Of a stretch of 64,000 bases of DNA, positions 5,329 to 38,994 are shown one piece after another. Location: contig VMEU01000001.1 of the NCBI GenBank assembly GCA_007375675.1, positions 40,458 to 104,457 on the forward strand, read 5' to 3'. The stretch is from Parcubacteria group bacterium Greene0416_39. Lineage in GTDB: Bacteria > Patescibacteriota > Minisyncoccia > Minisyncoccales > UBA10102. The stretch's first letter is position 1, and the number at the start of each line of letters is the position of its first letter. The position numbers were made by a program, and so were the translations under genes. The notes under the pieces are model-generated. The model had not been told where the DNA came from. It saw only the letters and a list, made by a program, of their open reading frames with translations, and did no database searches.

Positions 5329-7083
5329 ATGCATATTGAGTCTGAACAACTACAAGCGTTTCTGCTAGACGCAAACCTTGTGCCAAAAGGAAAGCTTGAG
5401 GGCGCAGTAAAGTCGGCACTAAAGGCAAAGAAGCGTCTTCGAGACGTGCTGTTGGAACAAAATCTTCTTACCGAGGAGACTTTATTGCGCATGGAGGCCT
5501 ACATCTTGGGCATTCCCTTTGTTGATCTTGAAAAAGAAAAAATTGACCCCACGGTCTTAAAAATAATTCCAGAGCCTATCGCAAAGTCGCACAACATTGT
5601 TGCGTTTCGCAGCAAGGAGCAAGACCTTGAGGTTGCAATGTTAGATCCTGACGACTTGGCGACCATTGATTTCATTCGCAAGAAATCAAACCTAAAGATT
5701 CTTCCTCGTCTCACAACAACCGCAAGCATTAAGCAAGTTCTGCGCCAGTACTCAAAGAGTTTGGAGGCGGAGTTTGGAGAGCTCATCCAAAAAGACGCAG
5801 TGGGAATCAAGGTAGTGAAGGAGGATGAAGCGCAGAAAAAGGAAGGCAAGGAAGACCTGAAAAAGGTTGCCGAGGAACTCCCTGTCATCCGCATTGTTGA
5901 TACGTTGATGCGCCACGCAATTTTGCAGAGAGCTTCAGACATTCACATTGAGCCAACGGAAAAGGAAGTCGTTGTCCGTTATAGGATTGACGGAATCCTA
6001 AGAGACGCAATGGTGCTTCCCAAAGCTGCTTCGTCAGGAATTGTTGCGCGCATCAAAGTGCTTTCTGACCTTCAGCTTGACGAGCACCGTCTTCCCCAAG
6101 ACGGGAGGTTCAAGGTGGAGACTGACGAGTACCGCTATTCCCTAAGAGTATCCATTTTGCCTGTGTTTGACGGAGAAAAAATTGTGATGCGCCTCCTTTC
6201 AGAATCTGCAAACGCGTTTACCTTAGAGCAGCTTGGATTCAGAGGAGAGGCATTGGAGCATATCCAAAAGAGTTTGAGAAAACCCGTGGGCATGATTTTA
6301 GTCACAGGCCCTACGGGTTGCGGGAAGACGACAACCCTGTATTCTATGATGGAGATTTTGAATACGCCGCAAGTGAATATCTCCACCGTGGAAGACCCAA
6401 TAGAATACCGCATGCCCCGAGTAAACCAGACCCAGGTGAATTCTAAAGTTGGCTTAACCTTTGCTTCAGGCCTCCGTTCATTGTTGCGCCAAGACCCCGA
6501 TATTTTAATGGTAGGAGAAATAAGAGACAAGGAAACCGCAGACCTTGCCATTAACTCCGCGTTGACCGGCCACCTGGTTCTTTCCACTCTGCATACCAAC
6601 AGCGCGGCAGGTTCTTTACCTCGCCTTGTTGACATGGGAGCTGAGCCCTTTCTCATTTCTTCAACCTTGAGCGTTATTGTTGGCCAGCGACTGGTGCGCA
6701 GGCTTTTGGAGGAAAAGGAGCCATACAAGCTCACAACAAAGGAGCTCGCGAGACTTACGCCCTACTGCAACGTTGAAAAGATAACAAGGATTCTTCAAGA
6801 GCAGAAACTTTTGAGCCCCAAAGGAAGGCTTCAAGATGTGGAGTTCTTTAAGCCGAAACCAACAAAAGATTTTCCTGACGGATACAAAGGGAGGGTTGGG
6901 ATTTACGAAGTATTGCCCATCACCGAGAGTATCAAACAGCTTCTTGTGCAGAAGGCAACGTCAGACCAGATTCAAGAACAGGCAGAGAAAGAAGGCATGC
7001 TCACCATGGTGGACGATGGCTTTATCAAGGCAGTGCAGGGATTAACAACCATTGAGGAAGTCCTCAGAGTTATTACAGAGTAA
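5329..7083 (+). CDS. pilB: Type IV pilus assembly ATPase PilB/GspE family
   Basis: Walker A VTGPTGCGKTTT; GspE N-terminal domain; Asp and His boxes; 584 aa. Confidence 0.9.
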   Translation: MHIESEQLQAFLLDANLVPKGKLEGAVKSALKAKKRLRDVLLEQNLLTEETLLRMEAYILGIPFVDLEKEKIDPTVLKIIPEPIAKSHNIVAFRSKEQDLEVAMLDPDDLATIDFIRKKSNLKILPRLTTTASIKQVLRQYSKSLEAEFGELIQKDAVGIKVVKEDEAQKKEGKEDLKKVAEELPVIRIVDTLMRHAILQRASDIHIEPTEKEVVVRYRIDGILRDAMVLPKAASSGIVARIKVLSDLQLDEHRLPQDGRFKVETDEYRYSLRVSILPVFDGEKIVMRLLSESANAFTLEQLGFRGEALEHIQKSLRKPVGMILVTGPTGCGKTTTLYSMMEILNTPQVNISTVEDPIEYRMPRVNQTQVNSKVGLTFASGLRSLLRQDPDILMVGEIRDKETADLAINSALTGHLVLSTLHTNSAAGSLPRLVDMGAEPFLISSTLSVIVGQRLVRRLLEEKEPYKLTTKELARLTPYCNVEKITRILQEQKLLSPKGRLQDVEFFKPKPTKDFPDGYKGRVGIYEVLPITESIKQLLVQKATSDQIQEQAEKEGMLTMVDDGFIKAVQGLTTIEEVLRVITE

Positions 7084-19277: not shown

Positions 19278-19730
19278 ATGAATTGCCCAATGTGTCAAAG
19301 TTCTTCAAAGGTTATAAACTCCAGGAGCGCAGACCATGGGAAAACCGTAAAAAGGCGCAGGGTTTGCATGAAATGCGCCAGGAGATTCACCACATATGAG
19401 CGCATAGAGCTTGTAAATGTCACGGTCTTAAAGCGCAGCGGGGCAAAAGAGCCTTACATGCGCCACAAGCTTCAGCTTGGGATGAGAAAGGCCTTGGAGA
19501 AGAGGCCGTATACCGAGCAGCAATTTGAAAGATTGGTCTCTGGGGCAGAAAATGATATTTTTAACAGGGAACACGATGTCATCTCTTCCGAACAAATTGG
19601 CCAGATTGTTCTTGCGCATTTGAAAGTATTTGATAAGGTTGCCTATCTGCGTTTTGCTTCCGTGTACCGGAGATTTGGGAGCACGAAAGCGTTTGAAAAA
19701 GAGATTGAAAAACTCGAAAAGGGAAAATGA
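19278..19730 (+). CDS. nrdR: Transcriptional repressor NrdR (zinc ribbon + ATP-cone)
   Basis: MNCPMCQSSSKVINSR...RRRVCMKCARRFTTYERIE; ATP-cone follows. Confidence 0.9.
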   Translation: MNCPMCQSSSKVINSRSADHGKTVKRRRVCMKCARRFTTYERIELVNVTVLKRSGAKEPYMRHKLQLGMRKALEKRPYTEQQFERLVSGAENDIFNREHDVISSEQIGQIVLAHLKVFDKVAYLRFASVYRRFGSTKAFEKEIEKLEKGK

Positions 19731-22700
19731 CTTCCATGCAAAAAAATCTTCTTGTACTCTCAAACAAAGAAAAGGGCGCGGTGAACGCCAGATTTTCTGA
19801 AAATGCTCTCAAGATGCTGCGCAAGCGCTATCTTGCTGTTGACGAGAAGGGAGTGCAGGAAACTGCAGCCGATATGTTTGCAAGAGTCGCAAGCGCGTTG
19901 GCAGCAGTGGAGAAAAACTACGGCAAGAAAGAACAGGATGTTAAAAAAGTCGCGCGGGATTTTTTTAACATCATGTCAACAAAAGAATACACTCCTGCGG
20001 GCCGCACGATCACCAATGGAGGAGGCGAAACCCCGGTTATTGCAAACTGCGTTGTCTTGCCTATTCATGATTCTATGGAGAGCATTTTTCAAACCCTCAA
20101 AGACGCGGCCTTGCTGCAGCAGGCAGGTTGCGGCCTTGGCTTTGATCTTTCTGAAATGCGGCCTGCTGACTTCCCTACAAGAAAATCTAGAGGGAGAGCT
20201 TCGGGTCCCGTTACTTTTTTGAAGGTGTATGACTATGCGTTTGGAACCATTAAGCAGCAGGGCAGGCACGGCGCGAATATGTCAATGATGAGGGTAGATC
20301 ACCCAGATGTTTTGGATTTTATTCATTGCAAAGAAGTGGAGGGTGAAATCCACAACTTCAACATTTCAGTCACCGTCACAGACGAGTTCATGGAACAGTT
20401 AGAGAAGAACCCCAACAAGCAGTGGTGGTGCGTATTCAATAACAAGAAATATAAGCCCAGAAAAGTGTTGCGCCATCCCAATGGGAGTGTGTACGGAACA
20501 GAGGAGGTAGATATTAGCGCAAAAGAGGTTTTTGACGAGTTGGTGAAAGGAGCGTGGACAAACGGAGAACCTGGCATTGCGTTTATTGACACGGTGAACA
20601 AAACCAATCCGCTTCCAGGTCTTGGCCCAATCGCAACGTCTAACCCGTGCGTGACAGGAGATACTCTCATACCCACTGAGCAAGGTTTTCTGACAATGGA
20701 GGAGCTCGTAGAGAGGTATGGCAAGGGCGGTGTCAAAATCGCAATCGATGTTCGTGTTCCCAAAACCATTGCCACTTCTCTTGTTGTGGAAAGTCTTATT
20801 GGCAATGGAGGAGAAGAAACAGTTCCTGTGCTGAATCTTTCGTTGTATGGAGAAGAAGGAGTGGGAGAAGTATCTAAAGCATGGAAGACAGGGGTGAAAG
20901 CAGTGTATAAGCTTACGACTCGTTCTGGCTACGAACTTGAAGCAACCGCGGAGCATGAAATTTTTACACCAAAAGGAAAGGTTCCTCTTGGGGAACTTCA
21001 GAAAGGAGATACGTTACTTCTTCAGTCGCGAGAAGGTCTTTGGAGCAACGAAGCGAAATTGCCCTTTACGTTTTCTAACGAGGTTCGAGGACGAAATGGC
21101 CACACGTATCGGTATAACTTTCCGACTGAATGGAGTCAACAGCTCGGGCAAGCCTTAGGATGGCTTATCGGAGACGGCTGGATACGAGAAAAACCAAAAC
21201 AAAACTGCGTAGGTTTTACCTTTGCAGAGGAAGATAAAAAAGTTTTACTGTATCTCAAAGAGATTTTAAACAAGTGGTATCGCAATAGCACTTCTCAAGA
21301 AATCAAAAGGCACAACGGAGTGTACCATTTAGTGTATGGTTCGAAAGATTTTATGCAATATATGAAGAACTTGGGAGTGAAAGCGGTACGTGCCCAAGGG
21401 AAAGAGGTGCCCTCTACTTTATGGAAAGCACCTAGAGAAGCAGTCATCGGATTTCTTCAGGGACTTTTTAGTTCCGACGGGACCATTAATATTTTTGAAC
21501 CAAATCAAACTCGGTATATCCGTCTCACCTCCAAGTCTGAGAAACTCCTCAAGGGAGTACAGCTCTTGCTACTGAATCTTGGCATTCGTTCAACCGTATA
21601 CAATAGAAGTAGGAAACCGAGTATGAAACTTGGATACCCCAACGACGGCGTACTCTTTGAGTTGCAGATTACGAAGACGAACATTCCGATATTCCTTAAG
21701 AAGATCGGATTTCTTGGAACCCATTACACAAAGAAAGCAGAGATACTTAGAACGTGCTCCTACTATCGAGAAACCTTTGAAGACAAGGTGAAAGAAATTC
21801 GGTTTGTTGGAACAAAGAAGGTGTATGACCTTACAGAATCCCTCTCCCATTCTTTGGTTGCAAATGGAATTGTCATATCAAATTGCGGCGAACAATATTT
21901 GCATCCGTATGACAACTGCAACTTGGGATCCATTAATCTTGCGGCATTTGTAAAACAGGGAAAAGTGGATTGGGCAAGACTCCGTTTTGTCACGAGAACC
22001 GCAACACGGCTCATGGACAATGTGATAGACGTTTTTGACTTTCCCGTAAAAGAAGTGACTGACTTAGCCAAGAATAACAGGAGGATTGGCTTGGGCATCA
22101 TGGGTTTTGCTGATATGCTCTATCAGCTTGGGGTGCGCTATGATTCCAAACAAGGATTTGCGTTAGGAGAAAAAGTTATGGGCTTTATTACTAATGAGGC
22201 CCATACAATGTCTGAGGAGTTGGCAAAAGAAAAAGGCGCATTTCCTAACATTGCAAAGAGCGTGTTTGCCAGATCCAAGAAAAAGATGCGCAACGCTGCC
22301 CTTACCACGGTTGCTCCCACAGGTTCTATCTCCATGATGTTTGACTGTTCTTCTGGCATTGAACCAAACTTTGCTCTTTCTTATGTGAAACAAGACAAAG
22401 ACGGCGTCCAATACCACTACCTTAACAAATACTTTGAGGAAGCGGTTGCCAAGTTGAAGCTTGCGGCAAAAGAAAAAGACGAGATTCTCCAGGAGGTTGT
22501 GGGAAAGGGGACCATACAGCATATTGGAAAGCTTCCAAAGGCATTGCGGGATACGTTCGTGATCTCCATGGATATTGTGGGACTTGACCATATGAAAATG
22601 CAGGCTGCGTTTCAGAAGCACGTTGATAACTCTATTTCCAAAACCGTCAACTTCCCAAATTCTGCGACCAGAGAAGATGTTGCCGGAAGTTTTGTAGCGG

Positions 22701-23377
22701 CTTGGAAGTTAGGGTGCAAATCAGCAACCGTGTATCGTGAAGGAAGCAGGGTGGTGCAGATTCTCAACCTTGGCACTGGAGAAAACCTTATTGCTCCCAC
22801 TGCGCTTGGAGTTGGGAAAGACAGCATAGAGAAACTCGACTTGCGCATGGACCAGCAACGTTTGGCCTCAAGGCCAAGGCCAGAGGTGATGACAGGCAAA
22901 ACCTACCGTGTGAAAACAGGGTACGGGAATCTATACGTTACCGTGAACAACGATGAAAAAGGAGTGCCTTTTGAGGTTTTTGCAACCATTGGGAAAAATG
23001 GAGGGTTTTTCCAGGAACAGTCAGAGGCCATATGCAGAATGATCTCTCTTGTGTTAAGAACAGGGGTAAAAATTGAAGAAGTGGTGGAGCAACTAAAGGG
23101 CATTAGAGGGCCAATGCCCATATTCACAGACAAAGGCACTATTCTTTCTCTGCCTGACGCCTTAGGCCGTATTCTTGAAGACCACGTGAAGTTTGCTCCA
23201 AGAGTGGAAGAAGCAGTTGCGAGGCCCGAGAGACAGGAAGTACTTCCTTTTATAGAAAAAAAACAGACCATTGCTGAAATGGGTTTTATGCCAGGATGCC
23301 CTGACTGCGGCTCCCCTTTACTGATGTCTGAAGGATGCATTAGCTGCAAGGAGTGCGGATTTAGCCGCTGTATGTAA
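19727..23377 (+). CDS. nrdJ: Class II (adenosylcobalamin-dependent) ribonucleotide reductase NrdJ, interrupted by an intein
   Basis: RNR catalytic motif split as ...ATSNP | intein | CGEQYLHPYDNCNLGSINL; C-terminal zinc ribbon CPDCG...CKECG; 1216 aa including a 412-aa intein. Confidence 0.9.
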   Translation: MTSMQKNLLVLSNKEKGAVNARFSENALKMLRKRYLAVDEKGVQETAADMFARVASALAAVEKNYGKKEQDVKKVARDFFNIMSTKEYTPAGRTITNGGGETPVIANCVVLPIHDSMESIFQTLKDAALLQQAGCGLGFDLSEMRPADFPTRKSRGRASGPVTFLKVYDYAFGTIKQQGRHGANMSMMRVDHPDVLDFIHCKEVEGEIHNFNISVTVTDEFMEQLEKNPNKQWWCVFNNKKYKPRKVLRHPNGSVYGTEEVDISAKEVFDELVKGAWTNGEPGIAFIDTVNKTNPLPGLGPIATSNPCVTGDTLIPTEQGFLTMEELVERYGKGGVKIAIDVRVPKTIATSLVVESLIGNGGEETVPVLNLSLYGEEGVGEVSKAWKTGVKAVYKLTTRSGYELEATAEHEIFTPKGKVPLGELQKGDTLLLQSREGLWSNEAKLPFTFSNEVRGRNGHTYRYNFPTEWSQQLGQALGWLIGDGWIREKPKQNCVGFTFAEEDKKVLLYLKEILNKWYRNSTSQEIKRHNGVYHLVYGSKDFMQYMKNLGVKAVRAQGKEVPSTLWKAPREAVIGFLQGLFSSDGTINIFEPNQTRYIRLTSKSEKLLKGVQLLLLNLGIRSTVYNRSRKPSMKLGYPNDGVLFELQITKTNIPIFLKKIGFLGTHYTKKAEILRTCSYYRETFEDKVKEIRFVGTKKVYDLTESLSHSLVANGIVISNCGEQYLHPYDNCNLGSINLAAFVKQGKVDWARLRFVTRTATRLMDNVIDVFDFPVKEVTDLAKNNRRIGLGIMGFADMLYQLGVRYDSKQGFALGEKVMGFITNEAHTMSEELAKEKGAFPNIAKSVFARSKKKMRNAALTTVAPTGSISMMFDCSSGIEPNFALSYVKQDKDGVQYHYLNKYFEEAVAKLKLAAKEKDEILQEVVGKGTIQHIGKLPKALRDTFVISMDIVGLDHMKMQAAFQKHVDNSISKTVNFPNSATREDVAGSFVAAWKLGCKSATVYREGSRVVQILNLGTGENLIAPTALGVGKDSIEKLDLRMDQQRLASRPRPEVMTGKTYRVKTGYGNLYVTVNNDEKGVPFEVFATIGKNGGFFQEQSEAICRMISLVLRTGVKIEEVVEQLKGIRGPMPIFTDKGTILSLPDALGRILEDHVKFAPRVEEAVARPERQEVLPFIEKKQTIAEMGFMPGCPDCGSPLLMSEGCISCKECGFSRCM
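20648..21883 (+). mobile_element. Intein in NrdJ with LAGLIDADG homing-endonuclease domain
   Basis: Begins Cys (CVTGDTLI, Hint block A); ends ...GIVISN with +1 Cys; two LAGLIDADG motifs LGWLIGDGWI and FLQGLFSSDGTI. In frame: 20648-19727=921 and 21884-19727=2157. Confidence 0.85.
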
Positions 23378-24667: not shown

Positions 24668-25876
24668 ATGAAGACAGTCAAGTCTTTTGTAAAAGAATCT
24701 CTTGAGTATTCATTTTTTGGGACGCAAAGGTTCGCCATTGAAGCGCTCACGAAAACTCAGTCTCAGCAATGGCACAGGTTTGATATTTTGCGCAGGCTGA
24801 GCCTGAACCTTATTTTCCTTGGAATTTACGGATTCATCGTATGGCAGACATTCCAAGGGAAATTTACCTTAGGAGAAATGACCCTGCTCATTCAGCTTGC
24901 AACACAAACGCAGTTTCCCTTGTTTGCCTCCTCCTTTATTGTTGAACAAGTTCAAAAAGCTCAAACAGGGAGTAAAGACTTTTTTGAAACTCTCGCGTTA
25001 GAGCCTGCCATTAAAGACAGACCTAAGGCAAAAGAGCTGCAGGTTGTGAAGGGCAAAGTGGAGTATCAAAACGTGTCATTTCAATACGAAAAGGGCGCAA
25101 CAGTTTTGCAGAGAATATCTTTTGCCATACCTCCTGGAACAAAGCTCGCTTTGGTAGGAGAAAGCGGAGAAGGGAAAACCACCATCGCAAACCTTCTCCT
25201 GCGCTTGTACGAGCCCTTTGAGGGCGAGATCCTTATTGACGGCATGAATATTAAAGAAGTAACCCAATCCTCTCTGCGAAAGAATATTGCGGTTGTATTT
25301 CAATCTCCCTCTTTATTTTCAGGCACTGTCCGAGAAAGTATTGCGTATGGCACAGACGAGGCAATAGAAGACAAGATCGTGCGCGCCGCAAAAGCGGCAA
25401 ATGCCCACGACTTTATCATGAAGCTTCCTCAAGGGTATGACACCTTGATTGGAGAACGGGGAGTAAAGCTGTCAGGAGGGCAGCAGCAAAGAGTCGCCAT
25501 TGCAAGAGCAGTGTTGAAAAACGCCCCACTATTGATTCTGGACGAAGCAACAAGTTCTTTGGACAGCAGGTCAGAGAGAGAAGTCCAAGGAGCATTGGAA
25601 GTGTTGATGCAGGGCCGCACCACTCTTATTATCGCGCACCGCCTCTCAACCATTCAAAACGTAGACACTATTGTTACCCTCAAAGAGGGGAGGGTAGATG
25701 AAATAGGAACGCCCGGGGAGTTGGCCTCAACAAAGGGCATTTACGCGCAACTGCTTTCGCTCCAGCAAATGCCTTTGCTTTTGAGGAAACAAAAACTCAA
25801 GCAGTACGACATTGAGAGCGGGCCGCCCTCGCCCAAAGGGCGGGGCGAGCCTCGCTCAAATTTCGCAGAAATTTGA
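24668..25876 (+). CDS. ABC transporter ATP-binding protein with only a partial transmembrane domain (N-terminally truncated type I exporter)
   Basis: Walker A GESGEGKTT; signature LSGGQQQRVAIARA; Walker B ILDEATSSLD; H-loop. Only ~130 aa (2 TM) precede the NBD. Confidence 0.75.
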   Translation: MKTVKSFVKESLEYSFFGTQRFAIEALTKTQSQQWHRFDILRRLSLNLIFLGIYGFIVWQTFQGKFTLGEMTLLIQLATQTQFPLFASSFIVEQVQKAQTGSKDFFETLALEPAIKDRPKAKELQVVKGKVEYQNVSFQYEKGATVLQRISFAIPPGTKLALVGESGEGKTTIANLLLRLYEPFEGEILIDGMNIKEVTQSSLRKNIAVVFQSPSLFSGTVRESIAYGTDEAIEDKIVRAAKAANAHDFIMKLPQGYDTLIGERGVKLSGGQQQRVAIARAVLKNAPLLILDEATSSLDSRSEREVQGALEVLMQGRTTLIIAHRLSTIQNVDTIVTLKEGRVDEIGTPGELASTKGIYAQLLSLQQMPLLLRKQKLKQYDIESGPPSPKGRGEPRSNFAEI

Positions 25877-25946
25877 GCGGGTGATGGGAATCGAACCCAC
25901 GTGCCTTGATTGGCAACCAAGTGTACTGCCATTGTACTACACCCGC
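25876..25946 (-). tRNA. tRNA-Gly(GCC)
   Basis: Acceptor GCGGGTG/CACCCGC; D-stem GTAC/GTAC; anticodon stem CTTGG/TCAAG, loop TTGCCAA; T-arm GTGGG-TTCGATT-CCCAT. Confidence 0.75.
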
Positions 25947-25969: not shown

Positions 25970-26251
25970 TGCCGCGGGGGTGAATTGAACACCCGACGCC
26001 AGCCTCTTCCAAAGGCCGTTTTGGACTATCTCATCTCCCTTGAAAGGGAGTTGGGCGCTATTTGCAGGATTATTGTTGGGACTCACCCGCTAGTCTCTAC
26101 ACCTTCCGAGAAACTACTACCCTTCTCGGCTTGGCTCGGGATTGATCGTCCCAGACGATTTTTCCCCGAATTCACCCAATTTTTCAATCCGCCTTACGAC
26201 GGAAAGCCCCAAAGAGTTTAGGGCTGCGCTCTACCACTGAGCTACCGCGGC
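25970..26251 (-). tRNA. tRNA-Phe(GAA) interrupted by a 210-nt group I intron (exons 26220-26251 and 25970-26009)
   Basis: 5' exon GCCGCGGTAGCTCAGTGGTAGAGCGCAGCCCT; 3' exon GAAGAGGCTGGCGTCGGGTGTTCAATTCACCCCCGCGGCA. Joined, the anticodon loop is CTGAAGA. Confidence 0.8.
26010..26219 (-). mobile_element. Group I self-splicing intron in the tRNA-Phe anticodon loop (between nt 33 and 34)
   Basis: P1 pairs exon AGCCCU with intron GGGGCU, with U.G at the 5' splice site. P/Q/R/S-like elements AATTCGGGGAAA, AATCCCGAGC, GTGTAGAGACTAGCG, GAGATAGTCC. Terminal omega-G. No ORF inside. Confidence 0.8.
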
Positions 26252-26261
26252 ATCTGACAGT

Positions 26262-26960
26262 TTATGCAAAGAGCTGCTTTATGCCCTCTATCCATCCCAT
26301 AATCCGGTGGAAATTCTGTGTATCTCCTACACTAATCTGAATTGTCCCAAATGGCAAGCGGTTGTAAGGTCTTTTCCCCAAGCTCGATTTACTAATTCCG
26401 TAGTAAACTTTCTCAAATTGATTTTTAGGTAACCCAGTAATCTCTTGCCAATATTTTAATGCTGTTTGTTCGTTAGTATGTTTAAATATTCTTACGCCTG
26501 CTCTTACTCTAGATTCGGGTATTTTTAAGATGTTCTTTAAAAACTCTAGGAATACTTTAACCAGTATAGGGTCTGTATTACTTAAACTAATCTTATGGTA
26601 GGTACGCTCTTTTCCATTTTTGATTATTGGCTTTTTATATCCTTCTCCCCAGTAAAGCGCAGTTCCTATTAATAAAAGTTCTCTTTGCGACAGTTTTTTG
26701 ATTACTAACTTTGCATCTTTGCGTATTTGTTTTGCTTGCTGTTGGGCTAAGTGAGTTTGAAGTTGATTTTTCTTTATTAATCCTCTTAGAGATCCTTCGT
26801 GAACCCGCCGCTGAATTCTCGCATGAGCTTTTTCTGATAAAACAAGTCCGGTAAACCAGCCCGAAAGCGTAGCTTTCGGAATTCCAAGCTTGGTTGTAAT
26901 CTCGTTATAGCTATACCCCTGAAGACGTAGCGAGAGCGCCTTTTCCTTATCACTGCGCAT
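26262..26960 (-). CDS. HTH + LAGLIDADG-like protein; possible free-standing homing endonuclease
   Basis: 232 aa; N-terminal HTH YSYNEITTKLGIPKATLSGWF; LLLIGTALYWGEGYK resembles a LAGLIDADG motif. Lies 10 nt upstream of, and co-oriented with, the intron-containing tRNA-Phe. Confidence 0.4.
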   Translation of the reverse strand: MRSDKEKALSLRLQGYSYNEITTKLGIPKATLSGWFTGLVLSEKAHARIQRRVHEGSLRGLIKKNQLQTHLAQQQAKQIRKDAKLVIKKLSQRELLLIGTALYWGEGYKKPIIKNGKERTYHKISLSNTDPILVKVFLEFLKNILKIPESRVRAGVRIFKHTNEQTALKYWQEITGLPKNQFEKVYYGISKSSLGKRPYNRLPFGTIQISVGDTQNFHRIMGWIEGIKQLFA

Positions 26961-28823: not shown

Positions 28824-28827
28824 ATGG

Positions 28828-28900
28828 TGGGCGTGGATGGACTCGGACCATCGACCTCGGCCTTATAAGGACCTTGCTCTGACCACTGAGCTACACGCCC
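28828..28900 (-). tRNA. tRNA-Ile(TAT) candidate (AUA decoder); anticodon arm has a 27-43 A.G mismatch
   Basis: Acceptor GGGCGTG/CACGCCC; D-arm GCTC-AGTGGTCA-GAGC; anticodon stem AGGTC/GGCCG (4 pairs), loop CTTATAA; T-arm GATGG-TCCGAGT-CCATC; CCA encoded. Confidence 0.5.
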
Positions 28901-31900
28901 CCATTATACTTTTCTTGCCAATCAACCTTTCAAACTCTTCTCGCTCCAATGTTTCCTTTTCTATCAGGGCTTTGGCTATCTTGACAAGCGTTGGCCTTTT
29001 TTGTTTCAAAACGTTCTCCGCCTTTTTTCTCGCGACTTCTACAAGGCCAGATACCTCTTTATCTATTTCTTCGGCAAGTTTTTGGGAATAGTTCACATAT
29101 TCTCCAATGTGCGCGAACGGGTGCTCCTCCCTTTCTCCAAAAGTTACGGGTCCCAGCGATTCAGACATGCCGTATTCTTTCACGAGGCGCCGTGCAAGAT
29201 CTGAAGCCTGCTGAAGATCATTGCTCGCTCCCGTGGTCACATCTTTGAATACCAACTTCTCTGCGCAGTATCCTCCAAGAAACGTTGCGAGTTCATCCAA
29301 AAATTCTGCTCTGCTCTTTAAATGTTTTTCTTCTGAAGGGAGTTTCAAAGTGTATCCTCCAGCTCTTCCTCGGGATATGATGGAAACTTTGCGCACCGGG
29401 TCTGCGTGGGGGAGCGAAGAAGCAACCAAAGCATGGCCTGCTTCATGGTACGCGGTGATCTCTTTTTCTTTTTTGGAAAGAATGTGGCTTTTCCTTTCAG
29501 GGCCCAAGAGCACCTTGTCTATGGATTCCAGAAGTTCTTCTTGGGAGACTATGGTTTTGTTGCGCCTCGCAGTAAGAATTGCTGACTCGTTCATAAGGTT
29601 GGCAAGGTCTGCCCCTGAAAATCCTGGGGTTCTCTCTGCAATTTCCCGTAAAGAGGTTTTGGGAGCCAATGGTTTGCCCAAGGAATGAATCTTGAGGATT
29701 TCTTCCCTGTCATTCACGTCAGGAAGGTCAAGAACGATTCTTCGGTCAAAGCGTCCTGGCCTCAAAAGAGCAGAATCCAACACGTCAGGGCGATTGGTAT
29801 TGTGAAGTAGGATAGGGCTTTCTCCTCCAAAGAAAGCTTCATTCTCGCAGCCACAGAAATCGTAGACGTAACCGTCATAAGGCAACTTCCTGATCGACTT
29901 CACAATCGCTCGTTTCGTGCTTGCTTTTCCGATTTTTGGATCGAGGGGATTTTGTGTTTTCCCAAATCCAAGCCGATATGCCTTGGTTTCTTGGAGTGGC
30001 TTCCCATCCCTAATTTTTCTTCCCGCTTTCACCGTAAATTCACGAATATAGCTTTTGAATCCGTGCATTCGAGAAAGCCAGTTTAATCCAAGGATTAGAC
30101 GCTTGCTTACCGAAGTAAGCTCGAGGCGTCCTCGTGTATCGGTGTAACCGTCTCCTGCTGCATATCCTTTGAGAAATTCAGTGTAGTATTCCTTTGGAGC
30201 TTCAAAAAGGAACTGGGGCACCTGTTTATTTTTTGCGCCTTTCCCACAGTGAAACGCAAGGAAGCTTGCGACAGGCTTGCAGTGGTACACAATATTTATG
30301 GCGTTTTTGGTAATATGACGTTCCCGATCTGGTTCAAGGTGAAAGATGGTTTTCATCAGATATCTCACGTCTTCTATGTATTCCTTTTCCTTCTCATTGA
30401 AACAAAAATCGAGTTCTTTCCTGGCATAACCCTCGGCGGTATAGTATCCAAAAAGCCTCATCAATTCTGGGCTTACTTCCACTGTTTCTGGAAGTTGATC
30501 TTTATATTGGTAGTAATTCCTACTTAGCGCTCGCGGCACACAAATACCCTGTTGCCATTTTCCAATAGTTCTTTGAGAGAACCCCAGCATATTGCCAAGC
30601 TCTGTTTGCGACGTTTCTCCCTCATGAGTACGAGCAAATTGATACGCATACTCTACTGACTGAAAAGGCATAAAGAGTGGTTCCCATAGCTGGAGTTGGA
30701 GCTCGAGTTTCTGGCTAAACTTATGGCCCCGTATTTCTCTCCTGTTTTTATTGGTGCGATTTACTTTATATGGAAGATCTACAAGAATGTCCCCTGGTTT
30801 AATTTCACATACAGGTTTTGGAACCAGCCCTTGAGCATTCGTTCGTATAAATACAGAGTGATTCCCAGTAGTTCTGATAGTTCCTCCCATATATTCTACT
30901 TCGTAAATCTCCTGTACTTTGTGACGGAATACGCTCCGCACTTTCTTAAATGCGCTGTTCTGGAGATACGTCTTTTTTTGCGCAGAAAATCCTTTTCCAA
31001 TTTTCTTTTCAAACCCAAGCACCTCTAATCTTTGCGACGGTTTTTCTACTCCTTCTTCGCCCTCTTGATAGTAGGGGTCTATGACTTGATCGATAGGAAG
31101 AAGCTTATCCTCCCCATTTTCTCGAATTAGTACAGGAGTATCACCGGTAACGCTTGCACCCATCACTATGCGTTGATCGTCTCGCTCAAAGCCGTCCATT
31201 TCCACTAAGATTTGGTTTAAGGTTTGTTCTCGTTCCTCGTGTCCGCCCGTGAATCCAGAGCCCCTCGTGCGGCCAATGGCGTCTAATTCGTCAATAAAGA
31301 TAATGCTTCTCCCAGCCCTTTTTGCAGTAGAAAAGAGATCCCGAACTCTCGAGCTTCCCACACCCACGAACATTTCCACGAATTCAGAACCTGAAGCAGA
31401 AAAGAATGCGACTCCAGCTTCGTTGGCCACAGCTCTTGCCAACAGGGTTTTCCCTGTGCCGGGCGCCCCTACCAAAAGCACTCCTCTTGGGATGCGAGCT
31501 CCCATGTCTAGATACTTTTTTGGGTTCTTCAAAAAATCCACTACTTCCTGGAGCTCTTCTTTTGCTTCTTTGAGACCTGCAACGTCTTTGAACGTGACTT
31601 TTTCTTTTGTCTGGCCGTCTGCTCCAAATAACCTGGCGCGAGACTTTGTGAACTCAAACGCCTGCCCGAGTCCAGCTCTTGCCTGGCGGAACATCATCAA
31701 AAAGAAGAACACGAAAAAGAGCATGGGAAGAATCACAAACAGAAAAGGCGAAATCCAGGCCCCAATGCCGCCTTCCTTTCTCTGCTCAATTGTTACATTG
31801 TTTAATTGTTCTTTATCAACTCCTAAGTTGAGAAGCGTTTGGGAAAGAGAGGAATCAGACTCTTTGAGAGCAGCAACTTCAGAGCCGTCTTCCAAAGTTA

Positions 31901-32081
31901 CCTTGAGCGCAGTCCCCTCAAGAACAATGCTTTTGGTATTCCCCTTGTTGATGTCTTGCACAAGCTCGCTCAAGGAGATCTGCTTTTGAGCTTCAAACGG
32001 CCGTGCAAAAAGCGAAAACAGCGCCGAGAGCACCAGGAGCGCCACAAACGCAACAAGAAGGTTTTTAGAAAAGTTTTTCAT
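28863..32081 (-). CDS. ftsH: ATP-dependent zinc metalloprotease FtsH, interrupted by a 452-aa intein
   Basis: N-terminal TM; Walker [16 protein letters not shown]; Walker [10 protein letters not shown]; sensor-1 region split as IVMGA | intein | TNRPDVLD; protease HEAGHALVA. 3' end overlaps the tRNA at 28828-28900. Confidence 0.9.
29799..31154 (-). mobile_element. Intein in the FtsH AAA module (Ser1 ... Asn, +1 Thr) with degenerate LAGLIDADG-like endonuclease region
   Basis: [15 protein letters not shown] start; ...[10 protein letters not shown]|TNRPD end; [14 protein letters not shown] and [13 protein letters not shown] motifs; 1356 nt, in frame. Without it FtsH is ~620 aa. Confidence 0.8.
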
Positions 32082-35242: not shown

Positions 35243-35896
35243 ATGCAGATATTTTGGAAAGGCCAGGCGTGCTTTCAGATTCTCACATCCCGCGGCAAAG
35301 ACAGCCAGCTTTCAATTGTTGTTGATCCTTACGAGGAATCCATTGGGTTAAAACTTCCAAGCCTTCAGGCCGACATTCTTTTGGTTACGCACAATCATTT
35401 CGACCACAACAATGCAAAAGACGTGAAAGGATCCCCCTTTGTCATTTCAAATCCAGGAGAGTATGACGTGAAAGGCGTGTTCGTGCAAGGGATCTTTTCA
35501 TTTCATGACGATACCCAAGGCAAAGAAAGAGGCAGTAACACCATATACCGTATAGAAGTTGAGGGCATGAGGATTTGTCATTTGGGCGATTTGGGCCAAA
35601 AAGAGCTTACCCAAGAACAGCTCAACCAAATAGGTGATGTGGACATTTTGTTTGTTCCAGTAGGGGGCGTGTATACCATAGACGGCAAAGAAGCTGCGCG
35701 CATTGTAAGCCAGCTTGAGCCAAAGATTGTTATCCCCATGCACTATGCATTGCCAAAGCTCAAGGTGAAGCTTGAAGGCGTGGAAGAGTTTCTCAAACCC
35801 ATGGGAGCAAAAAATGCAGTGGCTGAACCCAAACTCCTAGTGAAAGAACGTGATCTTGTGAATGAAGAAAGGAGAGTGGTGGTCTTGACGCCATGA
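35243..35896 (+). CDS. MBL-fold metal-dependent hydrolase (UPF0173/YtkL-like)
   Basis: LLVTHNHFDHNN metallo-beta-lactamase motif; 217 aa. Confidence 0.75.
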   Translation: MQIFWKGQACFQILTSRGKDSQLSIVVDPYEESIGLKLPSLQADILLVTHNHFDHNNAKDVKGSPFVISNPGEYDVKGVFVQGIFSFHDDTQGKERGSNTIYRIEVEGMRICHLGDLGQKELTQEQLNQIGDVDILFVPVGGVYTIDGKEAARIVSQLEPKIVIPMHYALPKLKVKLEGVEEFLKPMGAKNAVAEPKLLVKERDLVNEERRVVVLTP

Positions 35897-38800
35897 TCAA
35901 AGAAAACAAACCGAGCGCCATAGGCAAGGTTGAGCCAAGAGAAATTGTGCAGGAGATGAAAACTGCGTATTTAGATTACGCAATGTCTGTTATTGTTGCA
36001 AGAGCTTTGCCTGACGTAAGAGATGGATTAAAACCAGTTCACCGGAGAATTCTGTACGCAATGTACGAAATGGGGTTGACCCACGGAGCGAAATTAAGAA
36101 AATCAGCTGGCGTGGTAGGAGAAGTGCTTGGAAAGTACCATCCTCACGGAGACATTTCCGTGTACGACGCTTTGGTTCGCATGGCCCAAGATTTTTCCAT
36201 GCGCTACCCCTTAATAGACGGCCAAGGAAATTTTGGTTGTTTCACAAAAGATACCGAAATCCAACTGACCGATGGGAGAGCCCTCTCTTTTGGACAACTA
36301 ATTGAGGAACAGAAAAAAGGGGAAAGGCATTGGACCTTCTCATTTAATCAAAAAGAAGAAAAAATTGAGATAGCGGAAATTAAGCGTCCCCGCCTGACGA
36401 GAGAAAACGCAGAATTAGTGGAGGTGGTGCTTGATAACGGAGCACAAATTCGATGTACCCCAGATCATCGATTTATGCTTCAAAACGGAACATACCAGGA
36501 AGCCCGTTATCTTTCTCAGGGGGATTTTTTGATGTCGATGCTGGAATATACAAAAAACAAAACATCCGCTTTTGAGGCGGAAGTTTTGGGAGTCGCAGAT
36601 AGTACCGGTGCTTCGGAGTTGTCGTCTATTCCTATACTAGCAAACCAAGCAGTTCTGTCAAGTGTGTCCACGGAGCCGTGGACGGCACGGGAATTGCACC
36701 CGTCGACTTCTGGACGACAACTCCGAAGCCGGGACTACCCGCCGCCCACGGCCCCTCTATTATACCTACGAAAAGTAGAATGTATCAAGGTGAACAATGT
36801 AAGATTCCTTGAAGAAAAGACAGATGTGTACGACATCACAGTAGATCCTTGGCATAACTTTGCACTTGCAGCAGGTATTTTTGTTCACAACTCAATTGAC
36901 GATGACCCTGCGGCGGCAATGCGTTATACGGAAAGCCGCATGTCTCGGGCAGGGGAAGAACTGCTCGAAGACATTGAGAAAAATACCGTTGACTTCATTG
37001 ATACATACGACGGAATGAGGCAAGAACCCAAGGTTCTTCCTTCTCCTTTGCCCCAACTTTTGTTGAACGGCACCTTGGGAATCGCGGTGGGAATGGCAAC
37101 CAACATTCCTCCGCATAACTTAGCAGAGGTTGCAGACGCAGTAGCCTTCCTTATTGAAAATCCCAAGGCAGACACCGAAGATTTATTTCAATTTATCAAG
37201 GGGCCGGATTTCCCGACTGGCGGAACCATTTTTAACAAACAAGAAATGATTGCGGGCTACTCACAGGGCAAAGGCCCTATTGTGGTGCGAGGCAAAGCAG
37301 AAGTGGTGGAGAATGACAAGAAGAATCAGATCATCATTAGCGAGATTCCTTTCCAGGTGACCAAGTCTACTCTTGTGGAACAGTTTGCAAACCTTGTGCA
37401 GGAAAAGAAAATTGAGGGAATTAGAGACATCCGCGACGAGTCAGACAAAGACGGCATGCGAATTGTGTTTGACCTTGCAAGAGAAGCCCAGCCCCAGAAA
37501 ATTTTAAACCGGCTCTACAAATTTTCAGACCTGCAAAAAACATTTCACTTAAACCTTCTTGCCTTGGTAGACGGCATTCAGCCCAAGGTTCTTTCTTTGG
37601 CTGAAATCCTTCTGCTTTTTCTTGAGCACAGAAGGAATGTGGTTTCAAGGAGAACCCAGTGGGAGTTAGACAGAGCCAAAGAGAGAGCGCATATCTTAGA
37701 AGGCCTTGTAAAATGTCTTGGCAGCATTGACGAAGTTATTAAAATTATCAGACGGTCAGATGACCGGGACGACGCCAAAAAGAACCTCATGGCGCGCTTT
37801 AAGCTTACTGAAATCCAGGCAAACGCAATCCTAGACACAAAGCTTAGCCAACTGGCAAAGCTTGAGCGAAAGAAAATAGAAGAAGAATTAGTTGCGCTGA
37901 AAGCAACAATCAAAGAACTAACCTTAATTCTTGCAAACCCCAAGGAAATTGACCGCATCATTGCAAAAGAACTTGAGGTCGCCAAGGCAGCCTATGGAGA
38001 CCAGAGGAGAACCAAAGTGGTGGTGCAGGGCCTTGGCGAAATTGCAGAAGAAGATTTAATCCCCCAGGAAGACACGGTCATCACCTTAACCCAGGGAGGG
38101 TACATTAAGCGTATTAATCCCGCCACCTACAAAATTCAAAAGAGAGGAGGAAAGGGCATTGTGGGCATGAAAACCATGGGGGAAGACATTGTAGAGCACT
38201 TCCTGTATGGCCAGACCCACGACTCTTTAATGGTGTTTACCGATTCAGGCAAGGTGTTTCAAATACCCGTGTATGAAGTCGCAGAGGGAACAAGGGTTTC
38301 TAAGGGCAGAGGTCTTCTCAACTTTATTGACCTTACTCCTCAAGACAAGGTATTGACCCTTTTTGCCATTGGCAAAGAAGACATTGTGGCTGGCAAAAAA
38401 TATCTGGCCATGATTACCAAAGACGGAATAATGAAAAAAACCCTTTTGGACGACTTCAAAAACGTGCGGCGTTCAGGACTTATTGCAGTAACCCTTAAAA
38501 AGGGAGATCGTCTGCAGGGAGCGCAAAAAACCACTGGCGAAGACGATATCATTATTGTGACAAAACACGGCAAATCCATTCGCTTCAAAGAATCGCAGGT
38601 GAGAGCAATGGGAAGGCAGGCCGCAGGAATCCACGCCATACGCCTCAAAAAAGGGGATGAGGTTATGGGGATGGACATTATCCCTGGTTTGCCGTCGCGA
38701 CTCTTTATACTTTCAGAAAATGGGTATGGGAAAAGCACTGACGTGAAAGAATACCGGATACAGAGCAGGGGAGGGTCTGGAATCAAAACCGCAAACGTTA

Positions 38801-38994
38801 CCTCAAAAACAGGCAATCTCGTGTTTGCCAAAGTTCTTGAGGGCCCAGAAGAAGACTTAATCGTGATTTCAAGAAAAGGCCAGGTAATACGAACTCCTGT
38901 TACGTCTATTCCTAAGATAAGCCGCTCCACGCAAGGCGTGCGTTTCATGAGGCTTGATGAGGGAGACAAGGTTGTGTCGGCCGCTTGCATGTAA
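35893..38994 (+). CDS. gyrA: DNA gyrase subunit A, interrupted by a 218-aa mini-intein
   Basis: RALPDVRDGLKPVHRRILYAM; GQGNFG | intein | SIDDDPAAAMRYTES; C-terminal beta-pinwheel repeats; 815 aa without the intein. Confidence 0.9.
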   Translation: MIKENKPSAIGKVEPREIVQEMKTAYLDYAMSVIVARALPDVRDGLKPVHRRILYAMYEMGLTHGAKLRKSAGVVGEVLGKYHPHGDISVYDALVRMAQDFSMRYPLIDGQGNFGCFTKDTEIQLTDGRALSFGQLIEEQKKGERHWTFSFNQKEEKIEIAEIKRPRLTRENAELVEVVLDNGAQIRCTPDHRFMLQNGTYQEARYLSQGDFLMSMLEYTKNKTSAFEAEVLGVADSTGASELSSIPILANQAVLSSVSTEPWTARELHPSTSGRQLRSRDYPPPTAPLLYLRKVECIKVNNVRFLEEKTDVYDITVDPWHNFALAAGIFVHNSIDDDPAAAMRYTESRMSRAGEELLEDIEKNTVDFIDTYDGMRQEPKVLPSPLPQLLLNGTLGIAVGMATNIPPHNLAEVADAVAFLIENPKADTEDLFQFIKGPDFPTGGTIFNKQEMIAGYSQGKGPIVVRGKAEVVENDKKNQIIISEIPFQVTKSTLVEQFANLVQEKKIEGIRDIRDESDKDGMRIVFDLAREAQPQKILNRLYKFSDLQKTFHLNLLALVDGIQPKVLSLAEILLLFLEHRRNVVSRRTQWELDRAKERAHILEGLVKCLGSIDEVIKIIRRSDDRDDAKKNLMARFKLTEIQANAILDTKLSQLAKLERKKIEEELVALKATIKELTLILANPKEIDRIIAKELEVAKAAYGDQRRTKVVVQGLGEIAEEDLIPQEDTVITLTQGGYIKRINPATYKIQKRGGKGIVGMKTMGEDIVEHFLYGQTHDSLMVFTDSGKVFQIPVYEVAEGTRVSKGRGLLNFIDLTPQDKVLTLFAIGKEDIVAGKKYLAMITKDGIMKKTLLDDFKNVRRSGLIAVTLKKGDRLQGAQKTTGEDDIIIVTKHGKSIRFKESQVRAMGRQAAGIHAIRLKKGDEVMGMDIIPGLPSRLFILSENGYGKSTDVKEYRIQSRGGSGIKTANVTSKTGNLVFAKVLEGPEEDLIVISRKGQVIRTPVTSIPKISRSTQGVRFMRLDEGDKVVSAACM
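36238..36891 (+). mobile_element. Mini-intein in GyrA (no endonuclease domain), inserted between GQGNFG and SIDDDP
   Basis: CFTKDTEIQLTDGR (block A) ... FALAAGIFVHN|S (blocks F/G); in frame (345 and 990 nt from the CDS start); low-complexity linker in the middle. Confidence 0.8.

Follow-up and report, generated by a model that had tools for sequence, protein, structure and literature searches.

How can a cell obtain tRNA-Phe from a gene whose anticodon loop is broken by 210 nucleotides (nt)? The question is raised by a 64,000-nt stretch of DNA from Parcubacteria group bacterium Greene0416_39 (assembly GCA_007375675.1, contig VMEU01000001.1, positions 40,458 to 104,457; hereafter the window), in which tRNA-Phe(GAA) is encoded on the minus strand in two separated halves. 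The answer that we consider highly probable is that the insertion is an IA-like group I intron located between U33 and G34, the predicted splicing of which would leave a 72-nt tRNA. The locus raises a second question, namely what role might be played by ORF232, an open reading frame (ORF) immediately upstream whose homologues tend to accompany the intron.

An interrupted tRNA-Phe(GAA) gene

The 5′ exon (26220..26251, minus strand, as are all features of the locus described below unless stated; 32 nt, GCCGCGGTAGCTCAGTGGTAGAGCGCAGCCCT) ends in U33 and was delimited from the sequence and by ARAGORN in intron mode. The 3′ exon (26009-25970; 40 nt, GAAGAGGCTGGCGTCGGGTGTTCAATTCACCCCCGCGGCA) begins with G34 and ends in the discriminator A (25970), CCA being absent from the gene. 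Between them lies the group I intron (26010..26219), which is 210 nt long, ends in an omega-G at 26010 and is recognized by the Rfam model RF00028, by intron-mode ARAGORN and by covariation. A preliminary description of this DNA, made from the letters alone, had proposed that two tRNA halves on the minus strand are spaced by exactly 210 nt, with the insertion placed after U33 and devoid of an ORF. The spacing is confirmed to the base and the position between U33 and G34 is borne out; no ORF exists within the 210 nt, such that the intron encodes no homing endonuclease.

ARAGORN in its default mode reports 19 tRNAs in the window and overlooks the split gene. When introns are allowed, the program identifies the gene as tRNA-Phe(gaa), with an intron of 210 nt, a cloverleaf of canonical form and the anticodon loop CUGAAGA, in agreement with the canonical tRNA-Phe (loop CTGAAGA in the DNA) that joining of the halves had been expected to give. 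No further intron-containing tRNA was found in the window in this mode, and no second tRNA-Phe was detected there by ARAGORN in either mode or by Rfam. The covariance-model scan named as a check in the preliminary description yields a match to RF00028 (Intron_gpI) at 26229-26000 (-), which scores 64.6 bits against a gathering threshold of 50 (E 4.2e-14 over the window) and covers model positions 1-253, i.e. the full length of the model.

The complete 282-nt pre-tRNA is identical in four independent assemblies, comprising the NCBI metagenome-assembled genomes GCA_007378945.1 and GCA_007376645.1 and two ENA assemblies, and an assembly artefact is thereby excluded; the window also has the gene layout of contig VMGR01000003.1 of GCA_007376645.1. 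It is scarcely credible that the arrangement represents an assembly chimera or a chance resemblance, a view that can draw on two short Logan contigs that stop at, or 4 nt before, the 5′ splice site. Four longer assemblies read through this point with identical sequence, the Rfam E-value is 4e-14, and the contig breaks are explained by an exon 1 common to species with different introns. The ends of the Logan contigs concerned, L140 (SRR8863439) and L141 (SRR8863435), mark a branch point in the assembly graph, which an exon 1 shared by different species suffices to explain; a mixture of alleles with and without the intron may also contribute.

The splice junction is supported independently of the intron, because uninterrupted tRNA-Phe genes carry it in identical form: the predicted ligated junction AGAGCGCAGCCCU|GAAGAGGCUGGCGUC (28 nt) was found unchanged in at least 120 metagenome contigs, all with an uninterrupted tRNA-Phe. 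Among the matches listed, the closest uninterrupted genes show 1-3 differences from the predicted 72-nt tRNA. The presence or absence of the intron is therefore polymorphic among essentially the same exons.

Architecture of the intron

P1 (26205..26225) is formed by the last six bases of the 5′ exon, AGCCCU (26225-26220), and the internal guide GGGGCU (26210-26205), with U33.G at the splice site and a possible AAA/UUU extension. Four bases of the 5′ strand of the anticodon stem are taken up by this helix, leaving the 3′ strand unpaired. The intron strand of P10, UCUUU (26211..26215), pairs with GAAGA (26009-26005) at the start of the 3′ exon, and P2 (26189..26202) is a CCGUC-GUAA-GGCGG hairpin with a GNRA loop that is supported by covariation. 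The catalytic core P3-P8 (26024..26179) was defined by alignment to RF00028 and by covariation, and presents P3 (26179-26173/26057-26051), P4 (26169-26164/26141-26136), P5 (26159-26154/26150-26145), P6 (26135-26133/26103-26101) with P6a (26129-26123/26112-26106), P7 (26095-26091/26028-26024), and P8 (26050-26045/26040-26035) in canonical order. P/Q/R/S-like stretches had been pointed out previously, and these are present and align to the P4, P4′, P7, and P7′ regions of RF00028.

Between P7 and P3′ is an extra helix, GCGGG/CCUGC (26064..26090), of 5 base pairs (bp) with a 17-nt loop, UGAGUCCCAACAAUAAU. It is P7.1-like, as in subgroup IA, for which P7.1/P7.2 is the criterion; one covarying 5-bp helix is found here (26090-26064), not two, and from its sequence the intron is best described as a putative member of the IA-like family typical for tRNA genes of Patescibacteria. 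The 13 nt left 3′ of P7′ provide no P9 hairpin, and the final base of the intron is G. The minimum free energy fold of the intron is more stable than expected (z = -3.3, a stability reached by none of 200 shuffles) and contains P1, P2, P4, P5, P6a, P8, and a 3′ tail helix that is described below.

Distribution and covariation

One genome per GTDB species was searched with a pattern that covers P7 and the extra helix, and at least 119 loci matched. According to intron-aware ARAGORN the motif lies within tRNA-Phe(GAA) in at least 73 GTDB species representatives, and some 27 more among the matches listed are tRNA-Asn genes, some of them miscalled as Thr. After a 1-nt ambiguity had been settled, all 73 listed tRNA-Phe loci fit the arrangement U33|intron...G|G34. 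The introns of the retrieved tRNA-Phe set are 203-336 nt long, and the intron of the window is at most 78% identical to the retrieved GTDB members among the matches listed. The titles of the records refer to a wide range of lineages of Patescibacteria, namely Moran-, Magasanik-, Falkow-, Wolfe-, Yanofsky-, Jorgensen-, Doudna-, Berkel-, Peregrini-, Gracili-, and Saccharibacteria. A tRNA-Phe 33/34 intron at L264:1075-1387 has a different, longer P7-P3′ insertion resembling two hairpins; the species count of 73 is therefore an underestimate, because introns of this type escape the search pattern.

Covariation was assessed in an alignment (A2) of the window sequence with 67 retrieved pre-tRNAs, 68 in total. 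Standard pairs occupy 90.3% of pair cells, as against 75.4% after shuffling and at most 48% when partners are slid, and 50 of the 82 pairs change on both sides. The tRNA itself is well preserved, with 99-100% of cells paired in the acceptor, D, and T stems, and with the acceptor and D stems paired in all 68 sequences. The P1 helix AGCCCU/GGGGCU and the terminal G, both of which the preliminary description had reported, are found in the window, and the U.G at the 5′ splice site is present in 68/68 sequences and the omega-G (26010 in the window) is invariant in the aligned homologues. The P1 pairs beside the U.G follow the anticodon stem of the exon (GC:40/CG:27 and AU:34/CG:34), and the P10 pair with tRNA position 37 alternates between UA:34 and CG:33. 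In P2 all five pairs vary on both sides with 99% of cells paired, three of the five pairs of the extra helix covary (GC:30/AU:28; AU:37/GC:26), and compensatory changes are likewise seen in P3, P4, P6a, and P8. Position 37 of the tRNA (window 26006 (-), A2 column 444) is G in the window, with G37 in 34 and A37 in 36 members of the retrieved set, and the P10 strand of the intron covaries with it, C against U.

The P7/extra-helix motif was also encountered in 16 IMG/VR contigs labelled viral (L001-L016), in which ARAGORN found no tRNA around the motif. Rfam group I introns occur in clusters in some of these contigs, with four within 3 kilobases (kb) in L003 (911-3711) and two each in L001 and L004, and are presumably located in protein-coding genes.

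A helix between the intron tail and the anticodon stem

The 3′ tail helix (26000..26018) pairs intron bases CGGCC (26018-26014) with the 3′ strand of the anticodon stem, GGCUG (26004-26000), and puts the omega-G and the 3′ splice site inside a hairpin loop. In the P9-less subclade, five bases of the intron tail would in this way engage the stem strand that P1 leaves without a partner. The MAFFT alignment loses the register of this helix, the spacer from tail to omega-G being 1-3 nt, and the formal pair count was replaced by a scripted comparison of own and foreign stems in 33 P9-less sequences, which represent 26 distinct tail/stem combinations. The pairing is perfect in 18/26 of the distinct own combinations, compared with 30/512 (6%) when tails are confronted with foreign stems. 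Tail/stem pairs include GGCAU/AUGCU, GGCGG/UCGCU, GCGUG/CACGC, GGCGA/UCGCC, GGAUG/UAUCC, and GCGUC/GACGC. The tail differs from the genuine 5′ strand of this stem by transitions that are compatible with wobble pairing, an indication that RNA pairing is under selection. No description of such a helix was found in the literature, figures of papers aside.

Predicted splicing pathway

The sequence determinants of both transesterification steps are present, i.e. P1 with its U.G, P10, the omega-G, and an intact P7. Transcription is probably joint with the upstream ORF232 and the downstream tRNA-Gly(GCC) (25875..25946; ARAGORN and Rfam), which begins 23 nt beyond tRNA-Phe and belongs with it to a conserved cluster, Leu(GAG)-Val(UAC)-Phe-Gly(GCC). 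In the transcript the intron RNA would fold into the P3-P8 core, and the internal guide would pair with the last six exon bases to form P1, placing U33.G at the cleavage site, where free guanosine would attack the 5′ splice site. The guide would next pair with G34-A38 (P10) and the omega-G at 26010 would enter the G-binding site in P7, after which ligation of the exons would give the 72-nt tRNA with the loop CUGAAGA. By analogy with the Asn and Asp relatives discussed below, this would probably be self-splicing with exogenous guanosine.

Several points weigh against this interpretation. Published in vitro splicing assays cover the tRNA-Asn/Asp introns only, and the missing P9 together with a constant neighbour ORF leaves room for protein-assisted splicing. 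P7 and the extra-helix loop are invariant and give no covariation support, an invariance that is partly circular in that the search pattern fixed part of both, in a sample biased to the sub-family. The search for another tRNA-Phe covered the 64-kb window only, which bears on the view that the locus is a decaying pseudogene whose intron has lost the ability to splice, the cell being served by another tRNA-Phe. A decayed copy of this kind is known from L078, where a truncated intron 3′ half with the omega-G changed to A stands beside an intact intron-less tRNA-Phe. In the window, by contrast, all catalytic elements including the U.G and the omega-G are intact and another tRNA-Phe is lacking, the helices show compensatory changes across 68 species, and the sequence is identical in four assemblies, making the pseudogene explanation very unlikely. 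The L078 locus (~6190-6460 of CAVRXN010000002.1) consists of the intact intron-less tRNA-Phe, directly followed by the 3′ half of the intron and the 3′ exon of a second tRNA-Phe, and looks like the remnant of an intron-bearing copy with a replaced 5′ part.

Relationship to known tRNA introns

The known classes of bacterial tRNA intron were raised in number from 4 to 21 by Williams (2020; bioRxiv 10.1101/2020.01.27.920355), whose seed alignment includes an entry ‘Mba55.Phe.2Ug’ (10.1101/2020.01.27.920355). This Phe.2Ug intron shares with that of the window the host tRNA, the site after U33, U-1 and omega-G, P1 (GCCCU...GGGGC) and the core, and also the extra helix with loop UGAGUCCCAACAAUAAU, annotated as such in the seed alignment, and a short 3′ tail, AAGUUUGCCUUG; it derives from a different genome. 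Tables 1 and S3 of a subsequent survey (Nakagawa et al., 2026; mSystems, PMC13011429) list a Phe (GAA) 33/34 intron in the Doudnabacteria genome GCA_016699995.1. It is homologous to the intron of the window (211 versus 210 nt), with the same site and architecture and P9 again missing, and its tail is complementary to its own anticodon stem (GACGC/GCGUC). The exons of the two genes differ, and P1 and P10 differ accordingly. A homologue of ORF232 (P0098) lies 77 nt downstream of the Doudnabacteria tRNA-Phe, whereas the ORF is upstream in the window.

A further relative is the Patescibacteria tRNA-Asn(GUU) 35/36 intron of GCA_016700035.1, which self-splices in vitro (PMC13011429) and belongs to the subgroup IA family. 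Its P6a, P7, extra helix and loop, P3′, and J8/7 match those of the window nearly base for base, but it resides in another tRNA, at site 35/36, and has a P9 hairpin. Some members of the tRNA-Asn group hold internal HNH endonuclease genes, whereas the intron of the window has none. In the 2026 survey, nearly all tRNA introns of Patescibacteria are classed as IA and none as IC (PMC13011429).

The preliminary description had implied that tRNA-Phe is a rare host and had placed 210 nt near the lower size limit. The implied rarity does not stand in view of the Phe.2Ug class (Williams, 2020), the published Doudnabacteria case (PMC13011429) and the occurrence in at least 73 GTDB species; the length of 210 nt falls inside both the reported range of 184-894 nt and the 203-336 nt of the set assembled here. 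The 33/34 position is the usual site of tRNA-fMet introns in the same survey, from which the range of 184-894 nt is also taken (PMC13011429). The cyanobacterial tRNA-fMet 33/34 intron associated with I-Ssp6803I has the insertion position seen in the window. That tRNA-fMet intron belongs to subgroup IC3, and I-Ssp6803I is an intron-encoded PD-(D/E)XK enzyme that targets the anticodon region of the tRNA gene. The introns of Azoarcus tRNA-Ile and Anabaena tRNA-Leu are, like the one studied here, small ORF-less ribozymes (~205-250 nt) in the anticodon loop, but have an IC3 core with P9 and no helix between P7 and P3′. For the Anabaena intron, work by Zaug et al. in 1993 is said to have found that the anticodon stem must form between the exons. 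In the window, by comparison, the two strands of the anticodon stem are engaged separately, the 5′ strand by P1 and the 3′ strand by the tail of the intron. The intron described here is a further member of a class described since 2020 and common in Patescibacteria.

ORF232 and its association with the intron

ORF232 (26262..26960, minus strand; 232 amino acids, supported by comparison with homologues) has its stop codon 10 nt before tRNA-Phe. In 39 of the 73 listed GTDB loci a homologue is found at most 400 nt from the intron-bearing tRNA-Phe. Upstream homologues either share the strand of the tRNA, at a distance of 8-46 nt, or lie on the other strand, at ~110-155 nt; downstream homologues share its strand and are 41-92 nt away. 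In a comparison restricted to loci flanked by 900 nt or more on each side, the neighbour is present at 22/43 intron-bearing and 4/56 intron-less tRNA-Phe loci (Fisher p = 1.3e-6); for the exon type of the window alone the figures are 10/22 and 4/56 (p = 2.5e-4), and the four intron-less cases are all distant homologues with ~30% identity. A homologue was found at only one of the 46 listed GTDB loci that were not called as tRNA-Phe. The association is also seen from the protein side, in a sample of eight homologues on longer contigs (nine distinct contexts, 55-60% identity, one homologue being from the published Doudnabacteria genome), where all nine contexts, ten of ten with the window, place the ORF within ~115 nt of an intron-containing tRNA-Phe. 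The usual order in these loci is Val - Phe(intron) - ORF - Gly(GCC). Some intron-bearing loci have Phe and Gly 2-71 nt apart with no ORF between them, and the ORF therefore represents an insertion polymorphism in a conserved tRNA cluster. No paralogues of ORF232 were found beside the other tRNA clusters of the window.

The family to which ORF232 belongs is of uniform length (~231 amino acids), with a weak N-terminal helix-turn-helix (HTH) and a C-terminal domain in which the motif G..LYW.EG.K (LYW(A/G)EGYK), including its acidic residue E106, is invariant. A profile search recovered 4,904 clusters at 50% identity (E ≤ 1e-3). The three distant members examined are located in tRNA clusters; the neighbour is tRNA-Arg(CCU) in one case and tRNA-Val in another, the third member is flanked by tRNA-Arg(UCU) and tRNA-His, and there are no introns in the adjacent tRNA genes. 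Sequence searches of Pfam, NCBIfam, and PDB with ORF232 gave the weak N-terminal HTH only and no match to a LAGLIDADG profile, and Pfam returned HTH only for ten distant superfamily members. Comparison by hhalign with I-CreI gave a probability of 0.2, and with the genuine LAGLIDADG gene of the Doudnabacteria locus nothing was found. Foldseek against PDB gave weak OmpA-like matches only, and no characterised member of the family was found. That LAGLIDADG gene (L262:294-944 (-), Doudnabacteria CP064996.1) is a free-standing double-motif gene with a match to PF14528 of 38.9 bits; within the same tRNA cluster it is flanked by tRNA-Leu(GAG) and tRNA-Val(UAC), and it is unrelated in sequence to ORF232.

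As a tentative proposal, somewhat more likely wrong than right, ORF232 may combine an HTH with a divergent LAGLIDADG-like domain and represent an undescribed family of free-standing tRNA-gene endonucleases, of which the subfamily closest to it would act as the mobility partner, or alternatively as the maturase, of the intron. As an endonuclease, ORF232 would cut intron-less tRNA-Phe genes in the palindromic DNA of the anticodon stem-loop, and the intron would shield its own genome from cleavage, in the manner of collaborative homing. Collaborative homing, in which an ORF-less intron is paired with a free-standing endonuclease, is known from F-CphI and psbA of cyanophage S-PM2 and from mobE and I-TevIII of T4 (PMC3984707, PMC2790892, PMC6083498). 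The locus resembles these systems in its ORF-less intron and in a conserved free-standing gene, variable in position and orientation, that adjoins the interrupted gene. In contrast to S-PM2 and T4, however, the window is part of a cellular genome, and the link between ORF232 and the intron is a genomic association. The 2026 survey sought endonuclease genes solely inside introns of more than 500 bp, and the term “free-standing” is absent from it (PMC13011429).

Alternative functions for ORF232 are a trans-acting maturase or a DNA-binding regulator of tRNA operons. The former would imply that the intron is real but requires a protein cofactor for splicing in vivo, with ORF232 as the trans-encoded maturase, an explanation that appears rather improbable. 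No ORF232-like gene is found nearby at 21/43 intron-bearing loci whose flanks are long enough, the related Asn/Asp introns that lack an ORF splice unaided in vitro (PMC13011429), distant members of the ORF232 superfamily adjoin intron-less tRNA genes, and the invariant acidic motif residue E106 fits a nuclease better.

Genomic context

With 20 tRNAs in 64 kb, the possibility that the window derives from a large phage was considered and rejected, as it encodes FtsH, GyrA, RecG, a class I aminoacyl-tRNA synthetase, and ribosomal protein L19. The sole blastn match in a phage collection extends over 73 nt of tRNA-Gly(GCC) at 78% identity, and the intron had no blastn match in that collection. Also encoded are a ribonucleotide reductase, a type IV secretion-like pilin, and a T2SS/T4P ATPase. 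The genes for the ribonucleotide reductase (19727-23377 (+)), FtsH (28863-32081 (-)), and GyrA (35893-38994 (+)) bear inteins, of which those of the ribonucleotide reductase and FtsH contain LAGLIDADG_3 domains, and the window is rich in self-splicing and homing elements. A tRNA-Ile with the anticodon UAU (28825-28900 (-)), an uncommon bacterial way to read AUA, overlaps with its 5′ part the end of the FtsH ORF (stop at 28863). Downstream of tRNA-Phe, a perfect 11-bp inverted repeat, GCUCAAAUUUC...GAAAUUUGAGC (25851-25885 (-)), starts within the 3′ end of tRNA-Gly(GCC), at a site that is also the end of a convergent ABC-transporter gene. It may serve as a bidirectional terminator, though it has no U-run.

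Significance

Default tRNA finders overlook genes of this kind, with the consequence that genomes seem to be without tRNA-Phe and completeness estimates are skewed, as already noted in published surveys. The tRNA-Phe 33/34 class is far commoner in draft genomes of Patescibacteria than one case in 95 complete genomes suggests, and beyond that frequency the intron itself is biologically nothing new. What interest remains lies in the covarying helix between tail and anticodon stem and, above all, in the linked ORF family, a lead of moderate strength; the conserved neighbour ORF is possibly the only new part. The ORF232 family may matter more than the intron, being large and embedded in tRNA clusters with one subfamily tied to intron-bearing tRNA-Phe, and it gives a direct means of testing how tRNA introns without an ORF are maintained or disseminated in reduced genomes. 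If ORF232 is indeed an endonuclease or maturase, the tRNA introns of Patescibacteria would not be immobile merely for lack of internal endonuclease genes, contrary to the inference of immobility drawn in the 2026 survey (PMC13011429).
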